IMG/VR virus record: IMGVR_UViG_3300027582_000004
DNA length: 64,000 bases
Origin: an uncultured virus (IMG/VR IMGVR_UViG_3300027582_000004)
Taxonomy: Duplodnaviria; Heunggongvirae; Uroviricota; Caudoviricetes
Reading direction: 5' to 3' (one strand)
The stretch's first letter is position 1. The number at the start of each line of letters is the position of its first letter. Shown piece after piece: positions 4,115 to 24,763 of this stretch. The translations under genes and the position numbers were made by a program. The notes below the pieces were generated by a model. It was not told the origin of the DNA, ran no database searches, and saw only the letters and a list, made by a program, of their open reading frames with translations.

Positions 4115-7063
4115 ATGGGAAAACAATTAATTCGTGATTATGTATTTACACCTGGAGGTGCCGGAGCCGGTACTATTCAAATACCAGGTGGTTATACTTT
4201 GGACCAATTCCTAATCATCACTAATGTAACCGATAATGTGATTATTTACAACTTCGGTGGAGCTGATCATGCCGGCACAACTGCTGTAGTCACTACAGAA
4301 AACACTGGCGACGGTGGTAACTGGCCTACAGTTATATCAAGAGACAATGGATATACAACACTTACATTAGCTAAATCTACCTCAGGTATGTCAGCATCAG
4401 ATATTCTGCAAATCTTTGTAGAAGATCCACAAGGTGATACAACTGTCAGACCTTATGCATTTGGTACAGATGCTATTGAGCGTATGAGAGTATCCTTACC
4501 AGAGTCAATGATTGATGCTGACTTTGAGTATGGATTGCAGCCTACTAAATGGGCTGGCTATGGTACTGTTAAAGGATATCCATCTGTTTATCAAAACGAA
4601 GGTGTTGATATTGAAACTACAGCCGTAACTACAAATTACAATACAGGTTCTGCTACAAACTCATTAATTGAAGTCACATTTGGATCGGCACATGGCTTGG
4701 CTGTCGGAGATGTTGTTAACGTATCAGGGCTAGATGCTGGTGTTGCAGGCTTCTCACGGGGTGATGGTTCATTCCTTGTTGAGACAGTTGTTAATACTAC
4801 AAGAATTAAATACTATGCACGAGGTATTGTTGGTACATCAAACGGACAATCATTACACACTGAAGAGACACTAACAAGAGGTGGCGGTATTTATGCAGGT
4901 GCTTCTATTCCAGTTTCTTCTGCTACATCTAATGGTGCTAACCCAAGTGTAATTACTCTAAACTTTACTAACCCTCACGGGCTTATTCCAGGCACAAACA
5001 TTCACGTTGAGACTGGTGGCGGTACTAATAGAGACTATTCATCAGGACCTTTCTTTATTAAATCAACTCCATCACTTACATCTCTCACATTTAGTGCTAG
5101 ATCAGGTGCGGTAGTAAGTAATCCTAGTTCTATAACACTATATGCTCTTTCTAACGCTACTATTCTACATAGACCAGCAGATGGTGGAGTTATTCTACAA
5201 ACAAAGACACCAACATATGCGGCTTCTGTTGTACGTGTTAGTAAAAGGTATTTTAGGTATCAGTCTGGTAAAGGCTTCCTATTCTCAACTGGTACACTCT
5301 TTGCTCCTAACTATGATGTTAGAACTATATCTGCAGCTGGTACTTCTGTTGGATCTCTTATCACAATCGGTACTGATGAGATCGACCACGGACTACAACC
5401 TGGTGCTAAAGTTAGATTAGAAGGTATTGAGACATCTGGATATGAAGGAACATATACAGTTGATTCTATCGTAGATGACTATGTATATAAAGTAGCGGCA
5501 ACTCAAACTCTAGGAGCAACAGATCCAGTACTCAAAAGAGTATGTACGATGTATGTTACTGAGTGGCGTGGTGCAGCTGTTCGTGCAGGTATGTTTGATG
5601 ACGTTAACGGAATCTTTTATGAGTGGGATGGTAAACAACTATATGCTTGTAGACGTACATCAACTCAACAGATTACTGGTACAATTGGTGTTACTGCTAA
5701 CGGTAGTGAAGTCACAGGATCTAATACAAGACTTACAGAACAGTGTAAAGCTGGAGATAGAATTTCTATCCGTGGTATGATTCACTTTGTGACTCAAGTT
5801 GCTTCTGATACTTCTATGTTTGTGACACCTGACTATCGTGGTATTACAGCCTCTGGTATTAAAGGTAACCTTATTACAGATATTAAAATACCACAGTCAC
5901 GTTGGAATTTGGATACAATGGATGGCACAGGAACACATAACCCATCTCATCATAACTTAGATGTTAACAAAATGCAGATGGTTGGTTTCCAATACTCATG
6001 GTATGGAGCTGGATTCATTGACTTTATGATTCGTGGACCAGATGGTCATTGGACTATGGTTCACAGAATGAAAAACAACAACATTAATAATGAAGCATTT
6101 ATGCGGTCTGGTAACCTTCCAGTGAGATACTCTATTGAGAATGACTCACCAATTACACACCTAACTCAAACAATCAATGCATCTACTACAACTATTGCAG
6201 CTGCTGATCTAGGCGAGTTTGATGATGCTGGTACTATTATGATTGATAATGAAATTATCTCATATACAGGTAGGTCAACAACTTTAGGACCAGGCAACTT
6301 TACAGGATGTACAAGATCAGCTACACTTACTCAGTATCAGCAAGGTACTACAAATAACCTTACAGCTGGTGCGGCTGCTACACATAGTAATAAGACAGGT
6401 ATCATTGAGATTTCAAACACTTGTTCTCCAACACTATCCCACTGGGGATCTGCCCTAGTTATTGATGGAGACTTTGACTTCGACCGTGGTTATATCTTCA
6501 ACTATTCTAACTCACATAACTCTGGTTTAGACCAAATCGTCACAACTCCTATCACATCCTTTGTGCTTAGACTTGCACCTTCTGTATCTAACTCATCAGT
6601 TGGTAGACTTGGAGCCAAGGATCTTCTTAACAGATCACAGCTACTACTTAAAGAATGTGCTGTTGTGTGTGGGCGTGGTTCATCATCATCCGGTGAGGTT
6701 CATATTCAAGGGATTATTAATCCTAAGAACTTCCAAGATGCTACATGGAAATCACTTTCAGGTTCTGCAGAGGGTGGACAGCCTAGCTTTGCTCAAGTTG
6801 CAAATAAAGGTGATATTACATGGTCTAGTGGATCGTATGCGCAACCAGGAGAACGTATCTTCTCATTCGTTGCTGGTACAAGTAGACAAGACTCTGTTGT
6901 TACTACTGCTGATATTGATCAGCTTAAAGAATTATCAGGTGCTCCTCTCGGAGGAGATTATAAATTCCCAGATGGCCCAGACATCTTGGCAGTGAATGCA
7001 TTCTGTTTATCTGGTGATGTTAAAGCGTCTATTCAGCTTCGTTGGTCTGAAGCACAGGCTTAA
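4115..7063 (+). CDS. Large virion structural protein, 982 aa
   Basis: Long T/G/S-rich ORF in the fibre operon; resembles structural proteins of marine T4-like phages (recognised by eye only). Confidence 0.6.
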   Translation: MGKQLIRDYVFTPGGAGAGTIQIPGGYTLDQFLIITNVTDNVIIYNFGGADHAGTTAVVTTENTGDGGNWPTVISRDNGYTTLTLAKSTSGMSASDILQIFVEDPQGDTTVRPYAFGTDAIERMRVSLPESMIDADFEYGLQPTKWAGYGTVKGYPSVYQNEGVDIETTAVTTNYNTGSATNSLIEVTFGSAHGLAVGDVVNVSGLDAGVAGFSRGDGSFLVETVVNTTRIKYYARGIVGTSNGQSLHTEETLTRGGGIYAGASIPVSSATSNGANPSVITLNFTNPHGLIPGTNIHVETGGGTNRDYSSGPFFIKSTPSLTSLTFSARSGAVVSNPSSITLYALSNATILHRPADGGVILQTKTPTYAASVVRVSKRYFRYQSGKGFLFSTGTLFAPNYDVRTISAAGTSVGSLITIGTDEIDHGLQPGAKVRLEGIETSGYEGTYTVDSIVDDYVYKVAATQTLGATDPVLKRVCTMYVTEWRGAAVRAGMFDDVNGIFYEWDGKQLYACRRTSTQQITGTIGVTANGSEVTGSNTRLTEQCKAGDRISIRGMIHFVTQVASDTSMFVTPDYRGITASGIKGNLITDIKIPQSRWNLDTMDGTGTHNPSHHNLDVNKMQMVGFQYSWYGAGFIDFMIRGPDGHWTMVHRMKNNNINNEAFMRSGNLPVRYSIENDSPITHLTQTINASTTTIAAADLGEFDDAGTIMIDNEIISYTGRSTTLGPGNFTGCTRSATLTQYQQGTTNNLTAGAAATHSNKTGIIEISNTCSPTLSHWGSALVIDGDFDFDRGYIFNYSNSHNSGLDQIVTTPITSFVLRLAPSVSNSSVGRLGAKDLLNRSQLLLKECAVVCGRGSSSSGEVHIQGIINPKNFQDATWKSLSGSAEGGQPSFAQVANKGDITWSSGSYAQPGERIFSFVAGTSRQDSVVTTADIDQLKELSGAPLGGDYKFPDGPDILAVNAFCLSGDVKASIQLRWSEAQA

Positions 7064-7079: not shown

Positions 7080-8780
7080 ATGGTACAAAAGCTAAGTGAT
7101 CATCTAAATATCAGCCTAGGGTTAGCAGCACAAACTGACTCAGCAGATGTTCTTCAGATTATTAGAGAAACAAATATTGCTATGGACTCTGGTACCATGG
7201 GCGATTTTGTTGGGACTATTGCTCCTAAAGGATCTGATGCTGGCATTGTGGTTCTTAACTCTGGTACTAATGATGCAGATGTTCAACTTAGATTAGACTC
7301 AGACTATGCGGCTACATTAACGGGAACACAAACCCTTACCAACAAAACTATTAACCTTTCAAACAATAGTTTGACTGGTACTATTGGTCAGTGGAATGCA
7401 GCTCTTAGTGGCGGTAACTCTTTTGCATCATTAACTGGTACAGAAACACTTACTAATAAAACCTTAACTTCTCCTGTTATTAACACAGTTGATATTAACT
7501 CTGGTGCAATTAATGATATTAGTACATTCTCACTTAGAGATGTTACTGAGGCAAGTTATGAATTATTATTTGCAGCCAACAGTTCAGTTAACGCAAGTGC
7601 TGATAGAACATTAACCTTTGATGTAAAAAATGCTAATAGAACTTTAAGTCTGTTAGGTAACTTAACCCTTGGTGGTTCTCTTACTACATCTGGTGCACAC
7701 GCAACTACCTTTACTACAAGCGGAACAACTGGGCTTACACTACCAACATCTGGTACTCTTGTATCAAAAGATGGTTCTAATAATGTAAGTGGTATTAATA
7801 ATATTACAGTTACTGGTACTGTTGATGGTAGAGATGTTTCAACAGATGGTGGTAAGCTTGATAACATTGAAGCTAGTGCTGACGTTACTGATGCAACTAA
7901 TGTTGGATCTGCCTTATCAGCATTCTCAACAGGTGCTGATGCCGTAAGTACTGACCTTATACCAGTATATGACGCTTCAGCAGGTACATGGGAAAAGCAT
8001 ACGATTGCCAATGCAGCCTTAGCTGGTGATAAAGGTCAAAAGGGTGCTGCAGGTGCAGGCGGAGATGCTGGTGCTGCTGGTGCAAAAGGTCAAAAAGGTG
8101 CAGCTGGTACAATTGGTGTTGACGGTGCTAAAGGTCAAAAAGGTGAAGTTGGATCTGCTGGTGCTAAAGGCCAAAAAGGTGAAACTGGTGCTAAAGGCCA
8201 AAAAGGTCAAAAAGGTGAAGTTGGTGCTGGAGGCTCTACCGGAGCTAAAGGCCAAAAAGGTGAAAGCGGAGTAGGTGCTGACGGTGCTAAAGGCCAAAAG
8301 GGTCAAAAAGGTGAAGTTGGTGGTACTGGTTCAAAAGGACAAAAAGGTGACACTGGAGGTCAAGGACAAAAGGGTGAAGGTAACGAGGCTATTACAAGCG
8401 TAACTGCTCCATCAGGTGCAGTAGATGGAGACTTGTGGTGGGATGAGGAAACTGGATCTTTATATATTTACTATAATGATGGCTCTTCAAGTCAGTGGGT
8501 TCAGTTTAATAACTCGGTTGTTCCAGACGGATCTATAACAACAGCTAAGATTGCAGGCGATGCAATTAACGGATCAAAGATTGCCAATGATGTAATTAAC
8601 TCAGAACACTATGCAGCAGGATCTATAGATGCAGAACATTTAGCATCTAATTCCGTAACCCAAGTTAAACTAGCAGATGATGCCGTAGGCTCAAATGAAT
8701 TGAAATCTGTCGTATCCTTTGTAGTGTATAACTCATCAGGTACAGCACTCAAAACTATATACGGCGCAGGAGGCGCATAA
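7080..8780 (+). CDS. Collagen-repeat tail fibre protein, 566 aa
   Basis: TLTNKT repeats; Gly-X-Y tract at about 8025-8381; GDLWWD...LYIYY..QWV fibre module. Confidence 0.8.
   Translation: MVQKLSDHLNISLGLAAQTDSADVLQIIRETNIAMDSGTMGDFVGTIAPKGSDAGIVVLNSGTNDADVQLRLDSDYAATLTGTQTLTNKTINLSNNSLTGTIGQWNAALSGGNSFASLTGTETLTNKTLTSPVINTVDINSGAINDISTFSLRDVTEASYELLFAANSSVNASADRTLTFDVKNANRTLSLLGNLTLGGSLTTSGAHATTFTTSGTTGLTLPTSGTLVSKDGSNNVSGINNITVTGTVDGRDVSTDGGKLDNIEASADVTDATNVGSALSAFSTGADAVSTDLIPVYDASAGTWEKHTIANAALAGDKGQKGAAGAGGDAGAAGAKGQKGAAGTIGVDGAKGQKGEVGSAGAKGQKGETGAKGQKGQKGEVGAGGSTGAKGQKGESGVGADGAKGQKGQKGEVGGTGSKGQKGDTGGQGQKGEGNEAITSVTAPSGAVDGDLWWDEETGSLYIYYNDGSSSQWVQFNNSVVPDGSITTAKIAGDAINGSKIANDVINSEHYAAGSIDAEHLASNSVTQVKLADDAVGSNELKSVVSFVVYNSSGTALKTIYGAGGA
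8025..8381 (+). repeat. Collagen-like Gly-X-Y tract (GAKGQKGE units)
   Basis: Recurrent ggtgctaaaggccaaaaaggtgaa DNA units; no Pro; one register break (GESGVGADG). Confidence 0.9.
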
Positions 8781-8782
8781 AC

Positions 8783-9850
8783 ATGGCGGCAATTAATTTC
8801 CCATCATCGCCATCAAACGGCGCAACACATACTGCTAACAACATAACGTGGCAATATGATAGTGGTAAAGGTGTATGGAGAGCTACCAATTTTGGAGATG
8901 CTCCTCAGGGTAACAAAGGCCAAAAAGGCGAGAAAGGCCAGAAGGGCCAAAAAGGCGAAGTTGGACAAAAAGGTCAAAAAGGTCAGACTGGTAACACTGG
9001 TAGCACTGGTAGCACTGGTGCTAAAGGCCAAAAAGGTGAAGTCGGTAACACTGGTTCAACTGGTTCTAAAGGCCAAAAAGGTGAGATTGGTGCCACTGGT
9101 GCTAAAGGCCAAAAAGGACAAAAAGGTGATACTGGGTCAACTGGTCAAAAAGGTCAAAAAGGTGCTACTGGTAACACTGGTAGCACTGGTAGCACTGGGT
9201 CAACTGGTTCAACTGGTTCTAAAGGCCAAAAAGGTGAGATTGGTGTCTTTGGTGGTGGTACTATTGATATCACTAACGGTGGTGTTTTCTCTAATGCTTC
9301 ATCTAACTGGACTGGTGACCCAGGCACAAAAGGTAAAATTCAATATCACTCAAATAGATGGTACATTGTTGCAGACCAATCTTCAAACAGAATTGTTCAG
9401 TTTAGAAGAAATGGCTCCGATGTATCATATGTTGATAACTCAGGTATCTATCAAGGTACTGCAGCATCTGCTAACTGGTCTGACCTTGCGGAGAAATACT
9501 TAGCTGATACAGAATATGAACCAGGTGATCTATTAGGCATTGGTGGTGACAAAGAGGTTACCAAATGGGAGACTGGTATGCCGATTGCAGGAGTTATATC
9601 TACACTACCTGGGCTTAGAATGAATGTATCAGAAGAAAATATGGAAGATCCTCTGTGGCCATTCATTGCTCTTAAAGGACGTATCCCTTGTAAGATAAAT
9701 GGTACTGCTGAAAAAGGTGACTATATAGTAGCAGATGGTGCTGGTAAGTGTAAAGCAATCCCTGCTTCAAGAGCTTCCGAAATACATTTCTTACATTATG
9801 TTGGTGTGGCACTAGAGGATGGCGAGGGAACAGTTGAGGTTAAAGTATAA
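8783..9850 (+). CDS. Collagen-repeat fibre protein with putative C-terminal intramolecular chaperone, 355 aa
   Basis: N-terminal INFPSSP...WQYD..KGVW; Gly-X-Y tract; C-terminal WSDLAEKY...GVIST.PG...ALKGRIPCK of the fibre autochaperone type. Confidence 0.75.
   Translation: MAAINFPSSPSNGATHTANNITWQYDSGKGVWRATNFGDAPQGNKGQKGEKGQKGQKGEVGQKGQKGQTGNTGSTGSTGAKGQKGEVGNTGSTGSKGQKGEIGATGAKGQKGQKGDTGSTGQKGQKGATGNTGSTGSTGSTGSTGSKGQKGEIGVFGGGTIDITNGGVFSNASSNWTGDPGTKGKIQYHSNRWYIVADQSSNRIVQFRRNGSDVSYVDNSGIYQGTAASANWSDLAEKYLADTEYEPGDLLGIGGDKEVTKWETGMPIAGVISTLPGLRMNVSEENMEDPLWPFIALKGRIPCKINGTAEKGDYIVADGAGKCKAIPASRASEIHFLHYVGVALEDGEGTVEVKV
8909..9244 (+). repeat. Collagen-like Gly-X-Y tract (GQK/GST/GNT units)
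   Basis: Uninterrupted triplets; Y position almost always Lys or Thr; no Pro. Confidence 0.9.
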
Positions 9851-10272
9851 TGCCAACATATGCACAAAATAATAGTAGTTTGCAATCACAGGCAGGTGGC
9901 CAGTTAAGAACCTTTGATAAGACAGTCAACTTTAATGTAACAGCTTATATACTTCAAAGCCCAGGAGGTTCGAATCTGTATCCAGGTGGTACATCATACC
10001 CTTCAGGATTTACCGGTGTGACAGCAACTCAAGCTATAGGTGAACGATTTGAATATACAGGCGCTGCTAATTCATTATATAACAATTACTTAAACGGTAA
10101 TATCTATACAGGTTCGCGTATGTATTCACAGCACGTTATTAATTCAATAACCGATACTATGCAAAGAACAGTTGATCAGATAGAAGGTAGAATAACAAAT
10201 AGAAGTATTAATGGTGTGCTTTGCCATAACTCTTGTCATTCAAGTTGCCATACTTCAAGAGGACGTAGGTAA
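9850..10272 (+). CDS. Putative radical SAM substrate/precursor A, 140 aa, C-terminus CHNSCHSSCHTSRGRR
   Basis: Triple Cys-His-Xaa-Ser repeat at the C-terminus; paralog of the next gene; directly upstream of the rSAM array; TAATG coupling on both sides. Confidence 0.7.
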   Translation: MPTYAQNNSSLQSQAGGQLRTFDKTVNFNVTAYILQSPGGSNLYPGGTSYPSGFTGVTATQAIGERFEYTGAANSLYNNYLNGNIYTGSRMYSQHVINSITDTMQRTVDQIEGRITNRSINGVLCHNSCHSSCHTSRGRR

Positions 10273-10661
10273 TGGGTAATTTATCCAGAGATAGTTTAGA
10301 TAGTTACATGCAAACTTATGCAGGTGCAAGGCTCCGTACATTTGATAAAACTATTAGTATAACTACAACCGTGTATATGGGTTTGGATACTGGCGTAGGG
10401 TTAGGTCAAACTACATCTAATTCTACTAACCATAGGTTTGAATATACTGGAGCTGCTAATAGCTTATTCGATAACTACATTGATGGTGGCGTGAGCGCAG
10501 GATCAAGAATTTATTCACAGGATATTGTAGACACATTAGAGGATGGAGTGAGAAGAACAGTCGATCTAATTGAAGGACGAATGACAGATAGGTCTATATC
10601 TGCTGTATTATGCCATACAAGTTGCCACACAAGCTGCCATTCATCGAGAGGAAGACGCTAA
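10272..10661 (+). CDS. Putative radical SAM substrate/precursor B, 129 aa, C-terminus CHTSCHTSCHSSRGRR
   Basis: Shares LRTFDKT, RFEYTGAANSL, GSR.YSQ, RTVD.IEGR.T.RSI..VLCH with precursor A. Confidence 0.7.
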   Translation: MGNLSRDSLDSYMQTYAGARLRTFDKTISITTTVYMGLDTGVGLGQTTSNSTNHRFEYTGAANSLFDNYIDGGVSAGSRIYSQDIVDTLEDGVRRTVDLIEGRMTDRSISAVLCHTSCHTSCHSSRGRR

Positions 10662-11839
10662 TGACTATGCAAAAATCATATTGTAAACAGATGAGATATT
10701 CTGGACCGGAAAGTCTGGCACCATCTGATGCAACTAAGTTTGATGTATTAATCCAAATGGAAGTATTGTCTGGATGTGAGCAAGGGTGTCTTGGGTGTTT
10801 TGTTGATAAAGCTATTGATCCAGAAGTAAATCAACAAATTATTGATCGAGCTAAAGAATTGGCTGATGGAGTAAAACGAGTAGGAGGTAACCTAAGAGAA
10901 TTTGTTATTGGACCTACTGATTTATTCTCAGCAAAAAATACAAAAGACATCTTAACTAATCCTACTGTACAAGCTATAATGAGAGAACATACAGGAGCAC
11001 GTATTGCTTCTCCTGCTAAGTTTGATAAAGCCTCTATGGAGAAAGTAAGAGAAATATTTGCTATACTAGACGACCTTGATGCATATAGACGTGATATGGT
11101 TATCGAGTTTATTATGCCTGTCGGTCGTATTAATGAGATGTTAGACGACGATGAGTATTATAACTCTGTCATGGAAAAGGTTGAGTTCTTTAAAAACGAG
11201 ACTCCTAAAATGATGGATTGGTCTTGGACTCTACAAGCTTCTAATGTAGTAGGAAAGCAAATAGATAAAGAAAAATATAATAGGATGATTCGACGTTCTT
11301 ATAATGATTATGGAACAATCGTAGAGATGAATCCAGCATTTGCAAGAGCGCCTAATCAGATCATTCAACGTAATAACTTATTTGCTTGGAATAGATTTTT
11401 AGAATCAGTTATCGATGATGAAAATAGTAAAGAGGCTGTTATGTCAATGGCAAATCTTTACTGTAATTCAATTAACTTTGTTGGTATAACTATTGTGCCA
11501 GGAGAACATGGACCTACTACTCATCTAAATGTTATGTTGCACGAACAAGCATTCTTCTTATCTAATAAGAACCTAGATGTAACCGGATTATCTTTTGAAG
11601 AAATCTTACAGCGTAAGAATGAATTGATTACAAAAGGTATAAATAGATCCAGTAAGGTAAAAGATTGCTCTGATTGTAAATTTGCTATCGCATGTGCTAA
11701 TAGATTGGTATTTGAAGCACAAGAAAGTTTAAACATAGACGGGTGTGTACTACCTAAAGAAATCTTGAAGCATTATAATCCATTTGATTTCACCTGGAAT
11801 GATGATGCAACTCAATATAAAATGAAAGACGGAGCGTAA
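10661..11839 (+). CDS. Radical SAM protein 1 (atypical IGPTD clade)
   Basis: CEQGCLGC (CxxxCxxC); IGPTDLF; C-terminal CSDC-x5-C...C. Start moved from 10610 to the ATG overlapping the upstream TAA. Confidence 0.8.
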   Translation: MTMQKSYCKQMRYSGPESLAPSDATKFDVLIQMEVLSGCEQGCLGCFVDKAIDPEVNQQIIDRAKELADGVKRVGGNLREFVIGPTDLFSAKNTKDILTNPTVQAIMREHTGARIASPAKFDKASMEKVREIFAILDDLDAYRRDMVIEFIMPVGRINEMLDDDEYYNSVMEKVEFFKNETPKMMDWSWTLQASNVVGKQIDKEKYNRMIRRSYNDYGTIVEMNPAFARAPNQIIQRNNLFAWNRFLESVIDDENSKEAVMSMANLYCNSINFVGITIVPGEHGPTTHLNVMLHEQAFFLSNKNLDVTGLSFEEILQRKNELITKGINRSSKVKDCSDCKFAIACANRLVFEAQESLNIDGCVLPKEILKHYNPFDFTWNDDATQYKMKDGA

Positions 11840-11841
11840 CT

Positions 11842-12945
11842 ATGATAGGTCAAAATCTTTATTACTTAAATAACACTAAGTATATCTCAACAATAGATAA
11901 CCTAGGTACTGTATGTGGTGAGTTAAATTCATATTATCATACAGGAACTCCTAGAGACATTATCATTGTTAGATCATCTATGGGCGGCTTTCTGGTTGAA
12001 GGTCAATATAATATTATTGCTGAAGGTACAAGAGCAGGTGCTTCTGAGTATCTTTCTTTCATGGACTTTGATGATGTAGATGATATAGACTTTATACAGA
12101 ACAGTGATAAACGTATTATCTTATTCGCAACATCAGGTGATATGATCAAAGTATTTTCAAGATATACTCATGGTTTGTTAACAGCTTCTGGTTTCTATGA
12201 TTCAAGCACTAACATCACAAGCATGGTTGGATCATTTCTTGAGAAAATATTCTCTATGGATACTATGCTAACTATATTAATGAATAGTAATGATCTGAAT
12301 GATGTATCCAATTATGTCGATACACTATTCTCTACAGACTCAGGTGGCGGAGCAGTAACTCCTTATACAGTAGTTTATCAAAATGGTAAGAACTTTAGTT
12401 ATGATCTTTTATTCTGGTTAAATGATTATCATAGAAATGCTTCTGTACAATCACTTATTAAAGAAAAGTTTACGGTACACCAATCTACTATGGCTCAAGA
12501 TGTAATGGAACACTTTACATCAAGACGCCACTATTTGGCATATATTCTTTCTGTTATTGATTGGATGAATGCCAACACAGCACGTAATGCTCAATATGCT
12601 ACAGATAAGACAGCCTTTATTCAAGACTGTTATATCACTAAAGCAAACACTGGTAACTACACCGCAGCCTTTTATCTGTTAGAAGAATTGTGGAATAAAG
12701 TTAAAGCAGACACTGCATTCATTGCCGCACACCAAGATAAGGCAGATAGTGATGCAGATGGTTGGGAATATATGGATCTCTATACAGAGTTTAAAAACGT
12801 ATTTCCTATTGTTCGTAAAGTATTGCAAAATGACTTTGATATGGACAACTTAACAGCTGATCTTAAATTAATTAATACAGATGTTCAGTTTTTCTCTAAA
12901 AGACAGAATCGTATTCCTTATCTTATTCACAAATATCCACTGTAA
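11842..12945 (+). CDS. Hypothetical protein in rSAM cluster, 367 aa
   Basis: Long ORF with GGAG RBS; no recognisable motif. Confidence 0.7.
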   Translation: MIGQNLYYLNNTKYISTIDNLGTVCGELNSYYHTGTPRDIIIVRSSMGGFLVEGQYNIIAEGTRAGASEYLSFMDFDDVDDIDFIQNSDKRIILFATSGDMIKVFSRYTHGLLTASGFYDSSTNITSMVGSFLEKIFSMDTMLTILMNSNDLNDVSNYVDTLFSTDSGGGAVTPYTVVYQNGKNFSYDLLFWLNDYHRNASVQSLIKEKFTVHQSTMAQDVMEHFTSRRHYLAYILSVIDWMNANTARNAQYATDKTAFIQDCYITKANTGNYTAAFYLLEELWNKVKADTAFIAAHQDKADSDADGWEYMDLYTEFKNVFPIVRKVLQNDFDMDNLTADLKLINTDVQFFSKRQNRIPYLIHKYPL

Positions 12946-12959
12946 GAGGAAAATTTATT

Positions 12960-13715
12960 ATGACAACACCTGATATAAGCACTTGTTATGAGTTACCACT
13001 CTCTCCTCAACATCTTGTACAGATATACAAAGATAAAGCAACACTAGAGGATTATGTCCTTTGGGTTGATTATGCTAAAAGTAAAGAAAAACTATCTGCA
13101 CAGCATATCATAATCTATCTGGCTAATACAAACTTTAAGACAACATTTTCTGCTGTAGATGAAGACTTAATTCTGTCTTATATCAAATCAGATTTTATGG
13201 TTGACTGTCCTTTACTATCTAGGATTGTTGTTCTTATTATTAAGTTTTATTATAAACATGATATTACTAAACAAGAAAGCCAGTTGTTGTTTATGTTTCC
13301 TCCTAAACTCATATTTAAGTTTATAGAAGACCATAAAGAATTAGTGGAAGATTTAATTAAGTCTGTTGCTGCAGCAGTTCCTTTTGCTCTGTATAAACTG
13401 TATGAAGGTTTTGATGATGATATGAAAGCAAAGGAAGTTAACCTGGCTGAGCTTGTTAATGATATAACCATACACGATAAACCTGCTATTTGTGGCCCTA
13501 ACATAGCTAGGCTGCTCACTACAGGTTATGATGCTTTACTGTTAATACTTAATAGAGAAGGATTATTCAGAGAGTTTAATAAACAAACCTATAATGATTC
13601 TCCAAAATACTTTGGTAAAGACCTCTACCATATTCTGTGTGAAACTAATCTTACAAAGCAGATAATTGAGTTTTTTCCAGAAGACTTTCTATTGACCCAT
13701 GATAACGAAACTTAA
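12960..13715 (+). CDS. Hypothetical protein in rSAM cluster, 251 aa
   Basis: Long ORF with GAGG RBS; no recognisable motif. Confidence 0.7.
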   Translation: MTTPDISTCYELPLSPQHLVQIYKDKATLEDYVLWVDYAKSKEKLSAQHIIIYLANTNFKTTFSAVDEDLILSYIKSDFMVDCPLLSRIVVLIIKFYYKHDITKQESQLLFMFPPKLIFKFIEDHKELVEDLIKSVAAAVPFALYKLYEGFDDDMKAKEVNLAELVNDITIHDKPAICGPNIARLLTTGYDALLLILNREGLFREFNKQTYNDSPKYFGKDLYHILCETNLTKQIIEFFPEDFLLTHDNET

Positions 13716-14721
13716 TAGTACATATGCTGGTTATTATAAGTATGATGAAGAAAAATCTCCAACCAACATAGATTTTTTAAGAACAGAAATTAATCTGGAC
13801 ATTCTACATGGTTGTAGTCAAATGTGCCCAGGTTGTTTTATTCCTAGAAAGAATTTAACCAAAGCAGATAACTTAGAAACACTTTATAATCTATTAATTG
13901 AAGGGGCTTATCACCCTGACGAAATTACTATTGGTCCAACAGACATCTTTGATGCAGAGAACTTTAGTGAGATTATGAATCACCCATATATGGAAAAACT
14001 ATATGGTATATCTGGTGTAGGATTTACATCAACTCTATTACAACCATATTCTGAAGTTAAAGAAAAACTTGCAAAGATATGGTCGTTATATAAAAATATA
14101 CATCGTGTACCTGATATTGATTTTAAGATAGTTTTAGATATAGATAAGTACCTTGACAATGATTTGGACGAGTGGTACAAGAACCTCGAGCTGTTCAAGT
14201 ATGGTTCTGTACAGTTTAGAGTAAACTATCATAAAGATGTGTTTAAAAGAATTGGCTATAATGATTTATGTCAAAAAGTATTTGATGACTTTAATGCACC
14301 AATTATTATTACACCATCATTCTTAACAGATAGAAATGCTCGTGGTAAAGTAGATCAGCATCTTGCTAACTTTAGACGTGATATGATAGAGCAAAAGATT
14401 GACGATAAGTGGCTAAATTTATATACATTCTTTGATGCTAAATTTAATGGCTATGGTTGCCAGAATTATAGTTTCTATAATAATAAACTTTATATCAATC
14501 CGTTTTTGTATGATGTAATTATACAAAGGACACCACAGTTTGAGACAACTATGGATAATAATACACTATATGATAATATAGATTATGCCCAACAAGTAGA
14601 TGACTGCAATGGTTGCCAATATATGATGAGTTGTGCTGAGCGTAATATACACCTTTATATGGAGTCACGAGGTTTAGAAAACTGTGTTGCCCTTAAAGAG
14701 TATATGTATGCCTCTCATTAA
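13699..14721 (+). CDS. Radical SAM protein 2 (IGPTD clade)
   Basis: CSQMCPGC; IGPTDIF; C-terminal CNGC-x5-C...C. Confidence 0.8.
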   Translation: MITKLNSTYAGYYKYDEEKSPTNIDFLRTEINLDILHGCSQMCPGCFIPRKNLTKADNLETLYNLLIEGAYHPDEITIGPTDIFDAENFSEIMNHPYMEKLYGISGVGFTSTLLQPYSEVKEKLAKIWSLYKNIHRVPDIDFKIVLDIDKYLDNDLDEWYKNLELFKYGSVQFRVNYHKDVFKRIGYNDLCQKVFDDFNAPIIITPSFLTDRNARGKVDQHLANFRRDMIEQKIDDKWLNLYTFFDAKFNGYGCQNYSFYNNKLYINPFLYDVIIQRTPQFETTMDNNTLYDNIDYAQQVDDCNGCQYMMSCAERNIHLYMESRGLENCVALKEYMYASH

Positions 14722-15871
14722 GAACAATTTATATTACGAACTTACCACAGAGACACAGACAAAGCCAGTATCTGCAGTAAAGATACAGCTTGATGTATTA
14801 GATGGTTGCCATCATAAGTGCCCTGGTTGTTTTGTACATCGCAGAGGTAATGCTAGTGATGAGCATCAGTTAGATAAAGCAAAAGACTTTATAAGAAGCA
14901 TTACAGATCAAGGGATCTTGGTTGATGAGATGCTTATTGGTCCGACTGACTTTCTTGCATCAGAAAACTTCTATGAAGTGATGCCACATCTTGAAGATAT
15001 TATCAACGAAAATAGCCCTATTCTTGCATTCGTATCTACTCTTATCGATGGTGACTTAGAAAGGTTTGTTAAATATATTAGCAATAATATTAATATAGAT
15101 ACTGAAATAGAAATAGGTATTGCTACTAACCCTTATAATTTCTTTTCTATACCATACCTTGAGAGAACTAAAAAGGCATTAGCATACCTTGATGAGAATT
15201 TAGAACACGAAATAACATACACATTTGTAATTAATATACGTGACTATAACTTAGACTATGCAGAACTTCATGCATATGCAATAGATAAGTTTGATACAAT
15301 CTTAGACTTTGTACCATCGGTATCTAGGTCCCATAAAGCACATATCATACTTGCAACATTGGATAAGTTTAATGAATATTTTAATGTATTAAGTAGAGAT
15401 AGCACTCTTAATAATATAATGATAGACCATTCACACGCTGGTATGAATTATACAGTTCTTAACTATAAGAAAGGCGAATGGTACCTAAGCCCCTTTATGT
15501 ATGAAAATATGGCAATCTATGACGATATGTTTAAAGTAGATAGCCTTGCAGATGCTACCAGAATAACAGAAGAACAAATAGAAAGAGCAAAGGGTACCGA
15601 ATGTGAAGAGTGTCCTATGTTCTTCTCTTGCTATAATAGAAAGATTATATCACTTAGGGATTATCTTGGTGTAGATAGATGTATTGCTCCTAAAGAGAAT
15701 ATGTTAAATAATATACATAACTATAATGGACCAGCTCAGACTATGTATGAGTGGGATGGATATTCTGTAGAGAATGACAAGAATGGTTATAGAAAGAAAT
15801 TTTTAGTAACCAAAGATGATGACCCAGAATTAGAAAGATTAAGGAATATTTCATATGTTAGTAAAACCTAA
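14708..15871 (+). CDS. Radical SAM protein 3 (IGPTD clade)
   Basis: CHHKCPGC; IGPTDFL; C-terminal CEEC-x5-C...C; probable start ATG at 14708. Confidence 0.8.
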   Translation: MPLIKNNLYYELTTETQTKPVSAVKIQLDVLDGCHHKCPGCFVHRRGNASDEHQLDKAKDFIRSITDQGILVDEMLIGPTDFLASENFYEVMPHLEDIINENSPILAFVSTLIDGDLERFVKYISNNINIDTEIEIGIATNPYNFFSIPYLERTKKALAYLDENLEHEITYTFVINIRDYNLDYAELHAYAIDKFDTILDFVPSVSRSHKAHIILATLDKFNEYFNVLSRDSTLNNIMIDHSHAGMNYTVLNYKKGEWYLSPFMYENMAIYDDMFKVDSLADATRITEEQIERAKGTECEECPMFFSCYNRKIISLRDYLGVDRCIAPKENMLNNIHNYNGPAQTMYEWDGYSVENDKNGYRKKFLVTKDDDPELERLRNISYVSKT

Positions 15872-16049
15872 GCGAGTGATGATCGACCCACCTAACGGAT
15901 GGCGATACGGCTTTCCTAAGATGCTACCTTTAATTCCAAAAGAAGGTAAGAATTTTAAATTAAAAGATTGGTTAATTCAAGAGGGTTATCCACCACACGA
16001 AATAATGGACAATCCCAACTTTGCTTGTAGGATGTGGGAAACCGAATAA
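15855..16049 (+). CDS. Small hypothetical protein, 64 aa
   Basis: Fills the gap between two rSAM genes with overlapping stop/start; contains DPPNGWRYGFPK. Confidence 0.6.
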   Translation: MLVKPKRVMIDPPNGWRYGFPKMLPLIPKEGKNFKLKDWLIQEGYPPHEIMDNPNFACRMWETE

Positions 16050-17203
16050 TGTTAACTGATGAATGGAAAAATATTGTAACCAAAGGCCACAGGCTTGAGG
16101 AGTTTACTTCTGTATCTTCCATGACTCAATATAAAATACAAGTGAATCTTGAAATACTTGAGGGCTGTTCTTATATGTGCCCTGGTTGTTTTGTTAAACG
16201 TAAAGGTAATTGGAATCCAAACTCAATCGCAACGTTTCATTCCTTGGCGTATGAACTAAAAGATAGAGATGATATTGTACTAGACGATATAGTAATTGGT
16301 CCAACTGATTTCTATGGCGCACAGAACTTAGAAGAAATTATTAATAATCAAAGACTTGCTGATGCTATATCAATGATACCTAAGGATAATAGAAACATTC
16401 AGCATAACTGTTCTATACTTGGATCATTATCTGAAAAGGATATTGAGGGTAAGATAAAAGCTATTGAAAATTCGCCACTGGGTAAAGCCGTTGAAGCATG
16501 GGATGTGCAAATTGCTTTAGATTTAAATAGACTAATGAATGATCAAAAATACCTAGACGCACTTGATAAAAGGGTCAATACTTTTAAGAATAGTTCCTTA
16601 AACTTTGAGATTAGTATGGCCACTAATATTGTACAAGGCGTAGAGGATATAATATATGAAGCTATAGAATTTGTTAGAACTAGGTATGAAACTGTTATTG
16701 AAGTATTGCCATCAGTAGTACGTTCGTTTAACCACAGCGCAAAGCATGGTAACAAACTATTTGAATGGAATGAAATGCTTAGTAAACTATCAATAGATAC
16801 AAAAAGGTTTAAAGAAAAGTTTCATTTCTTGCAAGGTGATGTATCACATAAAGTATTCCATTATGCTGTACTGAGCATATATCATGGTGATATGTATTTG
16901 TCTCCGTTTGTATATGAGAATGCTCAAATACACACAGATGATTTTAAAGTTGATAATGGTTGGCTTTGGTTACCAGATGCTGATATATCAGATTATATAT
17001 TAAACAAGAAGAATGAAATTGTACAGAGACAGATTAAAGAAAGCTCTGATAAAGAATGTGGTTCTTGTAAGTATTTAAATATATGTGCAAACAGAATGGT
17101 TCCAATGATTATGGATACAGTATTCAAAGGAAGAAAAGAATGTATTCTTAATAAAGAAGTTATAGAACTATTTGATGATGAGATATATCGTGGGTGTAGT
17201 TAA
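16049..17203 (+). CDS. Radical SAM protein 4 (IGPTD clade)
   Basis: CSYMCPGC; IGPTDFY; C-terminal CGSC-x5-C...C; TAATG-coupled start at 16049. Confidence 0.8.
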   Translation: MLTDEWKNIVTKGHRLEEFTSVSSMTQYKIQVNLEILEGCSYMCPGCFVKRKGNWNPNSIATFHSLAYELKDRDDIVLDDIVIGPTDFYGAQNLEEIINNQRLADAISMIPKDNRNIQHNCSILGSLSEKDIEGKIKAIENSPLGKAVEAWDVQIALDLNRLMNDQKYLDALDKRVNTFKNSSLNFEISMATNIVQGVEDIIYEAIEFVRTRYETVIEVLPSVVRSFNHSAKHGNKLFEWNEMLSKLSIDTKRFKEKFHFLQGDVSHKVFHYAVLSIYHGDMYLSPFVYENAQIHTDDFKVDNGWLWLPDADISDYILNKKNEIVQRQIKESSDKECGSCKYLNICANRMVPMIMDTVFKGRKECILNKEVIELFDDEIYRGCS

Positions 17204-18305
17204 GGATAATAGACAACAGGCTGTAAACTATCACAAAGACTTTGATGTGGGAGTTGGAGACGGGCACGAGATAAAAGTCCTATTTAATTGTGAGATATTA
17301 TCTGGCTGTGAGTTTAAGTGCAAAGGGTGTTTTGTAAATAAAGCTGGTAGTAATATCGGATCTTTTGATAGATTAAATAATGCTATTGATTTATTTAATA
17401 CCAATGGATACAGAGTATCTACTATTAATATAGGACCTTCTGACCTATTTGGTAATAACAATATTAAACAGCTATTAAATGATAGCGTATTCAGAGAAGC
17501 GTTATCGAAGTGCTCCACCATAGAATTTGCTACAACGTTGGAGAATGTTGACGAGGAAGTAATAGAGTTACTTAACACCATACCTAAGATAGACGGGTTT
17601 ATGTATGACATAAATGTTATAATAGATCCATATAAATTTGTTGATAATAATCAGTATAGGTCTTGGTTAAAGGAAGCTATTAATAAAATAAACTTATTTA
17701 CTCACGATGCTGATTATCATATACAAATGAATATGGGTAATGATGATAAGATTAATAAACGTATTGTGGAAATGTGTTACATAGTAGAGGATGAGTTTGA
17801 TTCTATATTCATACTTAACCCTAGTTTCTTTAGAGCCAGAAAGAGTAAAACTCATAAGCAGCTTATAGAGAAATGGAGTAAGACTCTAAAAGAAGAATGG
17901 ACTGATAATCATACTGAAGTCTTTCCTCTTACTATAGCTGATCAAGCACAAGGAGGTTCTTTAGAACTTAACTTCACATACTGTAATGAGAACTTTTTCT
18001 GGACACCGTTTGTATATAATATTGTTATGATTGGTACAGACGAGTATAAAGTACAAGATGAAAATGATATCAATTCTTGGACACAAGTTAAAGAAAATCA
18101 ATTCTTAAAACAATTAACATATTCAAATCAGACTAGCGAATGTAGTGGATGTGATAATATACTTACATGTATTGATAAAGGTGTTTTAAGTTATATGGAA
18201 CATCATATGCTAACCGATTGTGTATATCCATCTAAAAATCTAAAGAGTGTATCTAATAATAAAAAAGTTTCTTTAACGACTGGGTTTGAATTTAAGGCAA
18301 ACTAA
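17190..18305 (+). CDS. Radical SAM protein 5 (IGPTD clade)
   Basis: CEFKCKGC; IGPSDLF; C-terminal CSGC-x5-C...C. GTG start at 17190 inferred because MGVVKDN aligns with the paralog's MGIITNN. Confidence 0.8.
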   Translation: MGVVKDNRQQAVNYHKDFDVGVGDGHEIKVLFNCEILSGCEFKCKGCFVNKAGSNIGSFDRLNNAIDLFNTNGYRVSTINIGPSDLFGNNNIKQLLNDSVFREALSKCSTIEFATTLENVDEEVIELLNTIPKIDGFMYDINVIIDPYKFVDNNQYRSWLKEAINKINLFTHDADYHIQMNMGNDDKINKRIVEMCYIVEDEFDSIFILNPSFFRARKSKTHKQLIEKWSKTLKEEWTDNHTEVFPLTIADQAQGGSLELNFTYCNENFFWTPFVYNIVMIGTDEYKVQDENDINSWTQVKENQFLKQLTYSNQTSECSGCDNILTCIDKGVLSYMEHHMLTDCVYPSKNLKSVSNNKKVSLTTGFEFKAN

Positions 18306-19321
18306 TGGGTATTATAACTAATAATAAATCAGCAGCACAGGCTGACAAAGACTTTGACCTAACCTTTAGAAAAGGTCATGAAGTTAAAGTACAGTTTAAT
18401 TGTGAGATATTATCTGGCTGTGAATTTAAATGTAAGGGTTGCTTTGTAAATAAATTAGGAAGTAATGTAGGTGAATTTGATAAACTAAATGATGCCATTG
18501 ACTTATTTAATAATGAAGGTTATAGAGTATCAACAATTAATATTGGTCCTACTGACCTGTTTGGTAATAACAATATAATTACTTTACTACAAAATGAAAC
18601 CTTTGTAAAGTGTTTATCGAAAGTTTCTACTATACAATTTGTTACTACTCTTGAGAATATTAATTACCAAGTTATTAAACTTCTGAACGATATTCCTAAG
18701 AAAGATGGTTTTATGTATGACTGTAATATTGCTTTACAGCCACCTGTAGACTGGGATAGGATGGAGGAAAGATTAGAGTTATTAAACGACTTTAAAGATG
18801 ATCTAAATTATTATTTTGTCTATAATATGGGTAACGATGATGAGTATAACAGTGAAGTATTGGCTATGAACTACCTAGCAGACCTTCGCTTTGATACTAT
18901 AATACAACTTAATCCCTCATTCTTCCGTGCTAAGAAATCTAAAGTACAAAAGCATCTTATTGAGAAATGGAAAGGCTATGACTTTTCTGACGATCTATAC
19001 CCTAAAACAATTGTAGATAAAGCACAGGGCGGAAGTCTTGAACTTAACTATACGTTCTGTAATAATAGATTTTTCTGGACTCCATTTGTATACGACATTG
19101 CCTTAATCGGTACAGAGGAGTTTGAAGTAAAAGATGTAAATGATATAGACAGCTGGATAGTACCAAAGGATATACAGTTTACAAAGCAATTACGATATTC
19201 AAGTAAAGCGGATAACTGTTCTACTTGTTCTAATCTAATGACTTGTATTGATAAAGGTGTGCTATCTTATATGGAGCATCACTCACTTACAGCGTGTGTT
19301 TTTCCTGGAGTCTTTTCATAA
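18305..19321 (+). CDS. Radical SAM protein 6 (IGPTD clade; close paralog of protein 5)
   Basis: CEFKCKGC; IGPTDLF; C-terminal CSTC-x5-C...C. Confidence 0.8.
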   Translation: MGIITNNKSAAQADKDFDLTFRKGHEVKVQFNCEILSGCEFKCKGCFVNKLGSNVGEFDKLNDAIDLFNNEGYRVSTINIGPTDLFGNNNIITLLQNETFVKCLSKVSTIQFVTTLENINYQVIKLLNDIPKKDGFMYDCNIALQPPVDWDRMEERLELLNDFKDDLNYYFVYNMGNDDEYNSEVLAMNYLADLRFDTIIQLNPSFFRAKKSKVQKHLIEKWKGYDFSDDLYPKTIVDKAQGGSLELNYTFCNNRFFWTPFVYDIALIGTEEFEVKDVNDIDSWIVPKDIQFTKQLRYSSKADNCSTCSNLMTCIDKGVLSYMEHHSLTACVFPGVFS

Positions 19322-20379
19322 TTAAACCCTGTGATTAGATTTTGTCCAGTTTTATCCATATAGTTAAACCACATTCTCATAATACAATCTGGTAAATCTC
19401 TTTCACGGTTCTTCCAATCCCATTGTGTATAGCAACGGAATCCACATTTATTCCACCACTTACAAGACAGACAACCATTCTCGTCCATATATGCTTGCAT
19501 CATACCAGCATTATCTTTACGTTCATACTTTGTATTAAAGTCTCTCTGATCGTATCTATCCCACCTACAGTTTGATGTAGAGTTATCAGGAAAGATGGTA
19601 ACCTTATTAAGAGCCAAACAGTGCATATGATTACTCTCGTTATAGATCAGATCCTTAATAGGATTTATATCCGGATAGTTATGATATACAAACTTTAAGA
19701 ACTCAAGGTACTTACTATCAGATGGAATCATATAGTCATAACCACGATCTGGAATATAATCGTCAAAGTAGAAGTTATCAAACTTTTCATATAGGTAATG
19801 GAAATACTCATCATCATCTGCCATAAATTTCTCAATGGAGATAGTTGTTGCAACCATATTGATAGATGTAATATAATCTGCAAAGTGTTCTATGTTCTTA
19901 CCATAAGGTCCTTTGACTGGTCTACCATCAAAGTCATATGAGCAAATAATATAAGATGGTATATCTACAGCATTTAGATCATCAAGTAATTTCTGTACTC
20001 TATCTCTTTTACTGAACTGAAAAGAAGTAACCCAAACAACTTTAATATTTTGTTTATGTTCGTCAAACATTTTCTTAATAGCAACCAGAAAGTCGTAGTA
20101 CACTGGATAAGCCCATTCAGATATTCTATCTTGGAACAACTCACCACCTACCATGTTAATCTGAATAGTGTCTACTCGACCTTTCATCTTAATAACATGT
20201 TGCTCAACTAAATCTAATTTTGAGAATATTTCTTCACGTGATAAACCTACTGTAGATTTCTTATCGTGGTGACAAAAAGAACAGTTAAGATGACAATTTT
20301 CAAACAGCGTTAGTTCTATCTCAGCGATGTCTGGTCGCTTAGATTCAAGAAGCAGTTTGGTTGTGTCAAAGTTGTCCAA
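19279..20379 (-). CDS. Radical SAM protein 7 with SPASM-like C-terminus
   Basis: CHLNCSFC; VGGELF; CLSCKWWNKCGFRC. Confidence 0.85.
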   Translation of the reverse strand: MDNFDTTKLLLESKRPDIAEIELTLFENCHLNCSFCHHDKKSTVGLSREEIFSKLDLVEQHVIKMKGRVDTIQINMVGGELFQDRISEWAYPVYYDFLVAIKKMFDEHKQNIKVVWVTSFQFSKRDRVQKLLDDLNAVDIPSYIICSYDFDGRPVKGPYGKNIEHFADYITSINMVATTISIEKFMADDDEYFHYLYEKFDNFYFDDYIPDRGYDYMIPSDSKYLEFLKFVYHNYPDINPIKDLIYNESNHMHCLALNKVTIFPDNSTSNCRWDRYDQRDFNTKYERKDNAGMMQAYMDENGCLSCKWWNKCGFRCYTQWDWKNRERDLPDCIMRMWFNYMDKTGQNLITGFNYEKTPGKTHAVSE

Positions 20380-20767
20380 TCAACATTTCCTCTTTATAGT
20401 ATTCGTATATGTCTGGTACCATACCTTTAGATTCGTTCCATTCCATTTTATCTAATATAGCATCATATGTTTCTTCATCTTGCCAGTAAGGTACAAAGTG
20501 TGGATCATTATTAAAAAGCAAGTCTTCGTCATTAAGTGCATGATAAAATGGTTCCTGAAAATCATGACCAAGCCAGTATGCATAGCATATAGCAACTACA
20601 TAAGATTTGGCTGGATATATCCACTCATCAACATACTGAGTAAAATGTTTAAGAGCATCTTCAACTACAGTATTAGGTCTCCAAACAGTTTCTATGTTAG
20701 TCAGATCATCCTTAAAAAGAGATGCCGTCATGTGGTATGCCGCTTGTCTGGCTTTCCATTCTTTCAT
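20366..20767 (-). CDS. Hypothetical protein in rSAM cluster, 133 aa
   Basis: ORF overlapping both rSAM neighbours on the same strand; aromatic/acidic; no motif recognised. Confidence 0.65.
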   Translation of the reverse strand: MKEWKARQAAYHMTASLFKDDLTNIETVWRPNTVVEDALKHFTQYVDEWIYPAKSYVVAICYAYWLGHDFQEPFYHALNDEDLLFNNDPHFVPYWQDEETYDAILDKMEWNESKGMVPDIYEYYKEEMLIGQL

Positions 20768-24120: not shown

Positions 24121-24185
24121 AATAGCCCTTGTTAAGTACATTATATATACCATTATATATACAGATATAATATGAGGAATGCGAA

Positions 24186-24752: not shown

Positions 24753-24763
24753 AGGAATAAATT

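Follow-up and report, generated by a model that had tools for sequence, protein, structure and literature searches.

The bacterial His-Xaa-Ser (HXS) anti-phage system is the closest published analogue of the phage system described here. Its effector, HxsA, carries five His-Xaa-Ser repeats and is described as being matured by the radical S-adenosylmethionine (radical-SAM) enzymes HxsB and HxsC with HxsD, through a +8 Da change mapped to SHRSS; 99.7% of the HXS systems reported lie in Pseudomonadota genomes (PMC13128918). Here, we analyze a stretch of 64,000 nucleotides from the uncultured virus IMGVR_UViG_3300027582_000004 (hereafter, the window), in which two adjacent genes, A and B, encode small proteins that both terminate in CHxSCHxSCHxSRGRR and stand between a collagen-like fibre gene and a cassette of radical-SAM genes. 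The reading that we favour, and consider probable though well short of assured, is that A and B form a fibre-associated heterodimer in the virion whose tails are radical-SAM substrates, covalently modified on Cys, His, or Ser. The features needed to follow the argument are these:

8783 to 9850, plus strand: collagen-like tail-fibre protein, 355 residues (Pfam Collagen, E 1.4e-18; PHROG tail-fibre families)
9850 to 10272, plus strand: protein A, 140 residues, predicted to fold as a helix-hairpin-helix scaffold whose hairpin loop is variable, and ending in (CHxS)3-RGRR
10222 to 10269 (10222 to 10272 with the stop codon), plus strand: tail of A, CHNSCHSSCHTSRGRR
10272 to 10661, plus strand: protein B, 129 residues, a paralog of A with the same tail
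10611 to 10658 (10611 to 10661 with the stop codon), plus strand: tail of B, CHTSCHTSCHSSRGRR

Comparison with known maturation systems

As in HXS, the locus combines a protein carrier of repeated H-x-S near basic residues, several radical-SAM enzymes, and a protein that is small or accessory, and the tails of A and B each hold three H-x-S units, as an HXS substrate would; in HXS the matured protein is itself the working product. Unlike HXS, the A/B system is encoded by a phage within a fibre module, an invariant Cys opens each unit, the chain ends in exactly three units and then RGRR, and the phage cassettes hold four to ten enzymes rather than two. The ten radical-SAM open reading frames (ORFs) of the window are numbered rS1 to rS10. 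The HxsB model (TIGR03978) gave 30.0 bits on rS10 against a cut-off of 370, the HxsC model (TIGR03977) gave 23.4 bits on rS9 against 267.9, and neither A, B, nor the accessory proteins had an NCBIfam hit to the Hxs models. By sequence, then, the phage proteins fall outside the HXS family.

In ranthipeptide and sactipeptide systems, such as SCIFF-CteB and freyrasin-PapB with its repeated CX3D units, SPASM-type radical-SAM enzymes likewise act on repeated short Cys units near the C-terminus. For rS10, the top NCBIfam row is PapB, at 41.5 bits against a cut-off of 340 (NF047865). The A/B system would differ in having Ser or His as the acceptor, a folded and virion-associated carrier, and many enzymes per target. 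The anaerobic sulfatase-maturating enzyme (anSME) has the target motif C/S-x-P/A-x-R; the last unit of the tail, C-H-x-S-R, shows the same Cys-Arg spacing, and the sole match of rS9 among PDB sequences is the anSME 4k36 (E 6.7e-6). However, the anSME model TIGR03942 (cut-off 349) gave only 38.3 bits on rS9 and 28.5 on rS10, the third position of the last unit is Pro in none and Ala in 4 of 97 unique tails, and there is no sulfatase domain in the A/B system.

Two further precedents are structural subunits cross-linked by radical-SAM enzymes and proteusins with heavy tailoring. With QhpC and QhpD of quinohemoprotein amine dehydrogenase, the product of the radical-SAM reaction stays part of the protein (QhpC), while the polytheonamide cluster unites several radical-SAM enzymes, a B12-dependent radical-SAM enzyme, and Fe/2-oxoglutarate (2OG) oxygenases. 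Some phage cassettes likewise combine radical-SAM enzymes, B12-binding radical-SAM enzymes, and 2OG oxygenases, but the target motif and the phage setting differ from both precedents, and the quinohemoprotein maturase model, with a cut-off of 453, reached 25.8 bits. The CXXX-repeat maturase model TIGR04115 gave only 19.5 bits on rS10 against 350, even though the tail qualifies formally as a C-x-x-x repeat.

Conservation of the A and B tails

A and B share 49% identity over 133 columns (BLASTP, E 1e-46). The initial annotation had described a paralogous pair with a triple Cys-His-Xaa-Ser core followed by RGRR, and both ORFs and both tails were found where it had placed them. The blocks it had listed as shared (LRTFDKT, RFEYTGAANSL, GSRxYSQ, and RTVDxIEGR) and the loop it had seen to differ all reappear in the BLASTP alignment, the loop falling between two strands. 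The A and B tails also use different Ser, Cys, His, and Arg codons, in agreement with its remark that synonymous codons differ between the cores. A back-translated DNA pattern for C-H-x-x-C-H-x-x-C-H matched twice in the 64 kb, at the two tails only, and in 0 of 100 shuffles. Neither A nor B belongs to a Pfam or NCBIfam family, and A gave no match against 50,697 phage records with blastn or tblastn.

A word-indexed homolog search gave 156 candidates, of which 142 proteins, all metagenomic and unnamed, remained at E≤0.01. Among the 120 of these that were listed, every one ends in RGRR and 113 carry the exact CHxSCHxSCHxSRGRR, while the other seven deviate at one to three residues. The initial annotation would have been refuted by a motif that homologs did not keep; they do keep it. 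The invariant columns of an 81-sequence alignment are R20, F22, and twelve tail residues, and the C, H, S, R, G, R, and R of the tail are invariant in the alignments.

Scanning IMG/VR for the tail left 80 viral loci, which can be divided into 47 of the A/B type (group 1) and 33 that match through the last ~16–50 residues only and possess single tail proteins of 177–296 residues (group 2). In the 97 unique tail ORFs of these loci, Cys and His are invariant, yet both TGT and TGC and both CAT and CAC are used, and Ser is encoded by AGY as well as TCN codons. With both Cys and His codons and both Ser codon families in use, selection acts on the protein and not on the DNA. The A/B family divides by its N-terminus into an A type and a B type. 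A tandem A/B pair is present in 42 of the 47 A/B-type loci (of the others, one is cut by the contig end and four are single-copy), and 32 of the 42 pairs have a one-base stop/start overlap.

The tail on other scaffolds

A 36-column profile built from the C-terminus only was run against 1.84 billion representatives and found 471 protein clusters at E≤0.001. Among the 150 of these that were listed, all have CHxxCHxxCHxxRxRR at the very C-terminus and 108 have the strict form. They span 58–533 residues, though the shortest may be fragments, and their N-terminal parts fall into 15 BLAST components. When the last 20 residues were removed, A/B and the main ~190-residue scaffold showed no detectable relation (hhalign probability 2.8%). 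Judged from these comparisons, the tail is portable between scaffolds.

The cassette ranges over marine T4-like myoviruses, jumbo phages of Agrobacterium, Ralstonia, and Burkholderia, and elements in Bdellovibrionota assemblies. Cultured carriers were found only through the exact DNA of IMG/VR loci, two of which are identical to the Agrobacterium jumbo phage Atu_ph07 and Ralstonia phage RSL2. The relatives RSF1, FLC6, FLC8, and SURPRISE13 likewise carry the cassette, and in the records of all six phages the tail gene is a "hypothetical protein." A tblastn search of phage records with the RSL2 protein returned 11 records, all from the RSL2 group; the group-2 190-residue protein and acc367, an accessory protein of the window, gave no match in blastn and tblastn searches of the 50,697 phage records.

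The motif is seldom seen in prokaryote assemblies. Of 13 loci, three (L096–L098) are chance frames without the RGRR end and 10 are real, comprising two Rhodobacteraceae contigs from one bin, seven contigs from metagenome-assembled genomes of Bdellovibrionota, and one Dysosmobacter contig. The seven contigs (L088–L094; up to 299 kb) are assigned to predatory bacteria and have the full cassette, with a tail protein, orthologs of rS7 to rS10, and p133, a further cassette protein; it may belong to a prophage, a phage contig, or a cellular system. Longer arrays, with either several CHxSCHxSCHSNV blocks before ...ARGRR or four units, occur at L095:3-362 (a Dysosmobacter segnis contig from a Firmicutes isolate assembly), in protein P0253, and at L091:156-764.

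Radical-SAM enzymes and accessory proteins

The tail genes are strictly linked to radical-SAM genes. Counting as radical-SAM any ORF of at least 250 residues with CX3CX2C within its first 150 residues, one is found ≤3 kb from the tail gene in 79 of the 80 viral loci; only L042 lacks one, and its sequence stops 2.4 kb past the tail gene. Where 9 kb or more is available downstream (59 loci), such ORFs number 3–7, with a median of six, and all 10 real prokaryote-assembly loci have radical-SAM neighbours. The cassette of the window is made up as follows:

10661 to 11839, plus strand: radical-SAM paralog rS1 (CX3CX2C at residue 39; C-terminal CX2CX5C and further Cys)
11842 to 12945, plus strand: accessory protein acc367, of no known family
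12960 to 13715, plus strand: accessory protein acc251, present in both cassette types
13699 to 19321, plus strand: radical-SAM paralogs rS2 (13699-14721), rS3 (14684-15871), rS4 (16034-17203), rS5 (17172-18305), and rS6 (18305-19321)
19279 to 23699, minus strand: the core set of rS7 (19279-20379), p133 (20366-20767), rS8 (20712-21662), rS9 (21640-22677), and rS10 (22668-23699)
23650 to 24153, minus strand: p167, a cupin/JmjC-like core member of the cassette

All ten radical-SAM proteins possess CX3CX2C, at residues 11–46, and all ten have C-terminal Cys motifs of the SPASM/twitch type: CX2CX5CX3C in rS7 and rS10, CX2CX5CX2C in rS9, and CX2CX5C with one or two further Cys in rS1 to rS6 and rS8. 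Against the Pfam radical-SAM model PF04055 (gathering score 29.5 bits), the nine proteins scanned, rS1 to rS9, gave one score above the threshold (rS9, 31.7), three below it (23.5, 21.9, and 17.8), and five without a hit. The only NCBIfam model passed was the SPASM model TIGR04085 (cut-off 27), by rS10 at 29.5, with rS9 at 21.5. The top NCBIfam rows are all peptide or protein maturases (PapB, DynA, anSME, CbpB, DarE, AmcB, and HxsB), an order of magnitude below their cut-offs. The core radical-SAM set matches phrog_1802 (E 1.9e-19 to 8e-57). No match for rS10 was found among PDB sequences with phmmer, and PADLOC reported nothing except weak viperin/Cas4 rows for the enzymes.

A BLAST comparison of the window's proteins with all ORFs of the loci showed rS7, rS8, rS9, rS10, p133, and p167 to be common to both scaffold groups, and the core orthologs adjoin the tail genes in group-2 loci, Atu_ph07, and RSL2. 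By contrast, rS1 to rS6 are largely specific to group 1: rS1 has a blastp hit (E≤1e-5) in 46 of 47 group-1 loci, as does each of rS2 to rS6, with cross-hits between paralogs, against at most 5 of 33 group-2 loci. rS5 and rS6 form a tandemly duplicated pair (348 columns at 57% identity), and most related loci have one radical-SAM gene fewer in this region (17172-19321). In group 2 the tail gene lies inside the enzyme cassette, between rS10 and an acc251-like gene, and some of these cassettes also carry a B12-binding radical-SAM enzyme and 2OG-Fe(II) oxygenases. One such case is the 590-residue protein at L066:13046-14815, which unites a B12-binding with a radical-SAM domain (class B type) and has small 2OG-Fe(II) oxygenases encoded on either side. 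An arrangement of one enzyme per site was rejected because single-tail loci retain seven radical-SAM genes.

The accessory proteins differ in their distribution. acc251 belongs to no Pfam or NCBIfam family; hhalign aligned it with the ~240-residue protein that follows the tail gene in group 2 at a probability of 98% (E 1.6e-13), which makes the two homologous and places acc251 in the core. Its model is confident (predicted local distance difference test, pLDDT, 89.9; predicted template modelling score, pTM, 0.88), yet it had no Foldseek hit at E≤0.001, a best VIA-align Z of 4.9, and no clear fold match. acc367 is group-1-specific (hits in 45 of 47 group-1 and 0 of 33 group-2 loci) and without a Pfam, NCBIfam, or PHROG hit; it showed no detectable relation to the ~370-residue protein of group 2 (hhalign probability 12%). 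The ESM Atlas offered no useful lead for either protein. For p167, the Cupin_2 match (E 8.4e-6, 25.9 bits) is under the cut-off of 27.2, but of six orthologs tested, five exceed the Cupin_2 and five the JmjC_2 cut-off, and p167 has a hit in 31 of the 33 group-2 loci.

Predicted structure and pairing

The AlphaFold2 model of A, based on an 81-row alignment (mean pLDDT 78, pTM 0.61), places a helix at residues 4–19, a beta hairpin at 23–35/55–68 whose tip (36–54) is the variable, low-confidence loop, and a second helix at 93–112. Of the two natures first proposed for the ~110–125 residues upstream of the tail, a long leader or a folded carrier, the model points to the folded carrier and speaks against a floppy leader.

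A and B were predicted to bind each other, as the initial annotation had suggested they might: three runs gave ipSAE values of 0.84, 0.83, and 0.84, whereas the best of three controls gave 0.01. The runs agreed in at least 75% of contacts, with a partner pLDDT of 75–76. Of 157 solved complexes, 116 attain the ipSAE mark used, as do 2 of 215 mismatched pairs, counts that hold only roughly for A and B since custom alignments were used here. The predicted interface is formed by the N-terminal and long helices, the first strand, and the linker, as far as the first Cys in either tail. As modelled, A and B would pair as a heterodimer with the two tails close together.

The fibre and the virion proteome

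The fibre gene, A, B, and rS1 are linked by one-base TAATG stop/start overlaps and so look translationally coupled. For rS1 this holds if its start is at 10661; the ORF was listed from 10610, but the ATG at 10661 is the likely start. Beyond the window, the C-terminal domain of the fibre protein recurs directly upstream of tail genes in many loci (blastp), for example with 61% identity over 182 residues at the end of a 3140-residue protein in L035 and 51% over 197 residues in L058. No relative of this domain was found among PDB sequences with phmmer. Both fibre proteins encoded at 7080-9850 possess unusually Lys-rich collagen-like repeats (GQKGQKGE and similar), which could matter if the tail forms Lys-reactive groups.

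The tail is also carried by gp170 of Atu_ph07, a protein of 296 residues. In table S5 of the Atu_ph07 report, which lists virion proteins identified by electrospray ionization tandem mass spectrometry, gp170 appears at 31.89 kDa with 8 unique peptides and 35% coverage (PMC6102473). It was detected in gel slices 1–9 and was most abundant in slice 1, where proteins of 75–139 kDa peak, whereas the peak of most ~30 kDa proteins falls in slice 7 or 8 (PMC6102473). The loading buffer, as described there, contained no reductant (PMC6102473), so the high-mass form of gp170 may be disulfide-linked. The same table includes gp176, which has the same fibre C-terminal domain and peaks in slice 4; it has no entry for gp169, for the cupin gp172, or for the radical-SAM proteins gp164, gp165, gp168, and gp171 (PMC6102473). 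gp170, whose scaffold differs from that of A and B, is the sole direct evidence that a tail carrier is a particle protein. The early suggestion that the pair sits on the fibre thus gains from the conserved fibre domain upstream and from a distant tail carrier in virions; for A and B themselves, we infer it.

Interpretation and rival explanations

Because the tail is invariant, is transferred between unlike scaffolds, and is almost perfectly linked to SPASM/twitch enzymes, it is most likely an enzyme substrate. That the product is structural and tied to the fibre, not a released peptide, is suggested by the Atu_ph07 proteome, the hypervariable loop of the hairpin, the coupling to the fibre gene, and the fibre domain conserved upstream. 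We propose that A and B would be small folded proteins of the tail-fibre module, most likely a heterodimer on or near the collagen-like fibre, and that their tails, (Cys-His-Xaa-Ser)x3-Arg-Gly-Arg-Arg, would serve as substrates of the neighbouring radical-SAM enzymes, with rS7 to rS10, the JmjC-like cupin, acc251, and p133 as the common core. The enzymes would act inside the infected cell without being packaged, and would install cross-links or side-chain conversions on Cys, His, and/or Ser that the mature particle may need.

Several points weigh against this proposal. Modification has been observed on no member, and a thioether, a C-C cross-link, an HXS-like change, and Cys/Ser oxidation may all be candidates, besides the HxS cyclophane and the metal ligation put forward in the initial annotation. 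The place of A and B in the virion is inferred, and the protein found in the proteome shares with them only the tail and the gene context; its position in the gel could reflect disulfides or a heat-stable oligomer. Only one of the nine radical-SAM ORFs scanned reaches the Pfam gathering score, and radical-SAM gene counts do not track tail counts, since single-tail loci keep seven or more (for example, L046). Confidence in the modelled tail itself is low (its last two blocks have pLDDT 66 and 52), and the model of A matches nothing in the PDB or BFVD at E≤0.001 (Foldseek). Lastly, paralogs may pass the complex test because each could homodimerize, and close cousins of a true partner also pass.

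The alternative to be taken most seriously, although we consider it rather unlikely, is that the tails form a plain, unmodified metal site (Zn, Fe, or Fe-S, with three Cys and three His per chain and six of each per dimer) in a structural protein, and that the enzymes would instead target fibre proteins, host envelope molecules, or a small molecule. Cys and His are indeed among the invariant residues, the two tails are predicted side by side, metal sites built from repeated His motifs are found in T4 fibre tips, and a modification is yet to be seen on any member. A metal site, however, would not need the Ser at the fourth place of each unit or the RGRR to be as invariant as Cys and His, nor would it explain why the tail changes scaffold and still has a radical-SAM gene ≤3 kb away in 79/80 viral loci and near it in all 10 real prokaryote-assembly loci, or why the group-2 tail gene lies inside the enzyme cassette. 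It is this co-occurrence and the equal invariance of Ser and RGRR that make the metal site the less likely explanation. Another form of the modified-tail proposal, which we think unlikely, holds that the enzyme set makes the paired (CHxS)3 tails of the A/B dimer a covalent staple: through a cross-linked or reactive group (thioether bridges, C-C bridges, or aldehydes derived from Cys/Ser, for example), the small protein with the hypervariable loop would be welded to itself or else to the collagen-like fibre, rich in Lys. The 32-kDa gp170 at the top of the Atu_ph07 gel would be the trace of such a weld, and phages would, if this is true, build their host-recognition tip by enzymatic, collagen-style cross-linking.

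Cofactors such as pyrroloquinoline quinone (PQQ) and mycofactocin are built on a peptide scaffold, and the tail might likewise be a scaffold for a cofactor-like or reactive group serving as a catalytic, redox, or metal centre at the fibre during infection. We regard this as very unlikely. The oxidative enzymes (4 to 10 radical-SAM, cupin, 2OG oxygenases) are unusually many for a 16-residue target, and that target stands at the extreme C-terminus, but no similarity to PqqE or MftC exceeds the superfamily level (the mycofactocin maturase model gave 17.5 bits against a cut-off of 265), and three repeated identical units fit a repeated local modification better. Hardly probable at all is a strict RiPP (a peptide made on the ribosome and modified after translation), in which an N-terminal leader would be removed and a modified 16-residue core released as a toxin, signal, or chelator. 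A C-terminal core behind a long N-terminal part, several SPASM-type enzymes, and, in some cassettes, a B12-binding radical-SAM enzyme and 2OG oxygenases do resemble RiPP clusters, and the initial annotation had spoken of precursors. Yet no protease or exporter family was recognized among the cassette proteins scanned (acc367, acc251, and p133 being of no known family), no Gly-Gly type cleavage motif precedes the core, and the N-terminal part varies in a hairpin loop, a pattern more in keeping with exposure at the surface than with a leader. With the genes coupled to a fibre gene and gp170 covered to 35% in the virion, the word precursor, in the sense of a released peptide, is not supported.

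Radical-SAM genes in such phages have been noted before. Pelagimyophage host-recognition clusters contain radical-SAM cassettes that are left unexplained where they are noted (PMC7029224), and marine T4-like genomes are stated to hold up to 12 radical-SAM genes (PMC5332604); in their passages on these genes, papers on pelagimyophages, marine viral genomes, and jumbo phages mention them without a function. No description of the tail motif or of the function of the cassette was found in literature searches on the motif, on phage radical-SAM, SPASM, and RiPP systems, and on the carrier phages. Our reading points to an enzymatic tailoring of a virus-particle protein not previously described. Maturation by radical-SAM enzymes is known from small peptides and from a few proteins of cells; if the favoured proposal is true, it would be a standard step for a particle protein of many large phages, would explain the pelagimyophage cassettes and the counts of up to 12 genes, and would provide a phage-side counterpart to the bacterial HXS defence system; a short 16-residue tag, invariant and portable, would come with enzymes dedicated to it. 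The question can be tested directly, since the cassette occurs in cultured phages.

Source virus and gene layout of the window

Homologs of the T4 neck, sheath-stabilizer, terminase, sheath, and portal proteins lie at 26.7–35.1 kb of the window (PHROG), and on this gene content the window is part of a marine T4-like myovirus. The A and B genes sit in the fibre region, upstream of the T4-like neck-to-portal genes. The best matches of the portal, all Kyanoviridae, are Phage C48C1 (67%), Pelagibacter phage HTVC008M (53%), and Methylophilales phage Melnitz (53%); the tail motif is present in none of these three nearest portal relatives, nor in the record G001. A scan for promoters and terminators was no different from shuffled sequence (91 vs 81.5 ± 8.3 and 7 vs 5.9 ± 2.4, respectively).

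A 64-residue ORF between rS3 and rS4 (15855-16049) has a match in 4 of 47 A/B-type loci and probably stands outside the system. Beside the cupin gene, at 24186-26692, are a 188-residue 2OG-Fe(II) oxygenase (phrog_81) and a 642-residue protein that matches a 2OG-oxygenase PHROG (phrog_61, E 7e-107) along with weak glucosyltransferase rows; both may be further tailoring enzymes of the region. Upstream of the fibre genes, 4115-7063 encodes a 982-residue virion structural protein (phrog_5838, E 1e-234) whose size is kept upstream of the fibres in several related loci, and which may be the VrlC-like protein that bounds the pelagimyophage "host recognition cluster."

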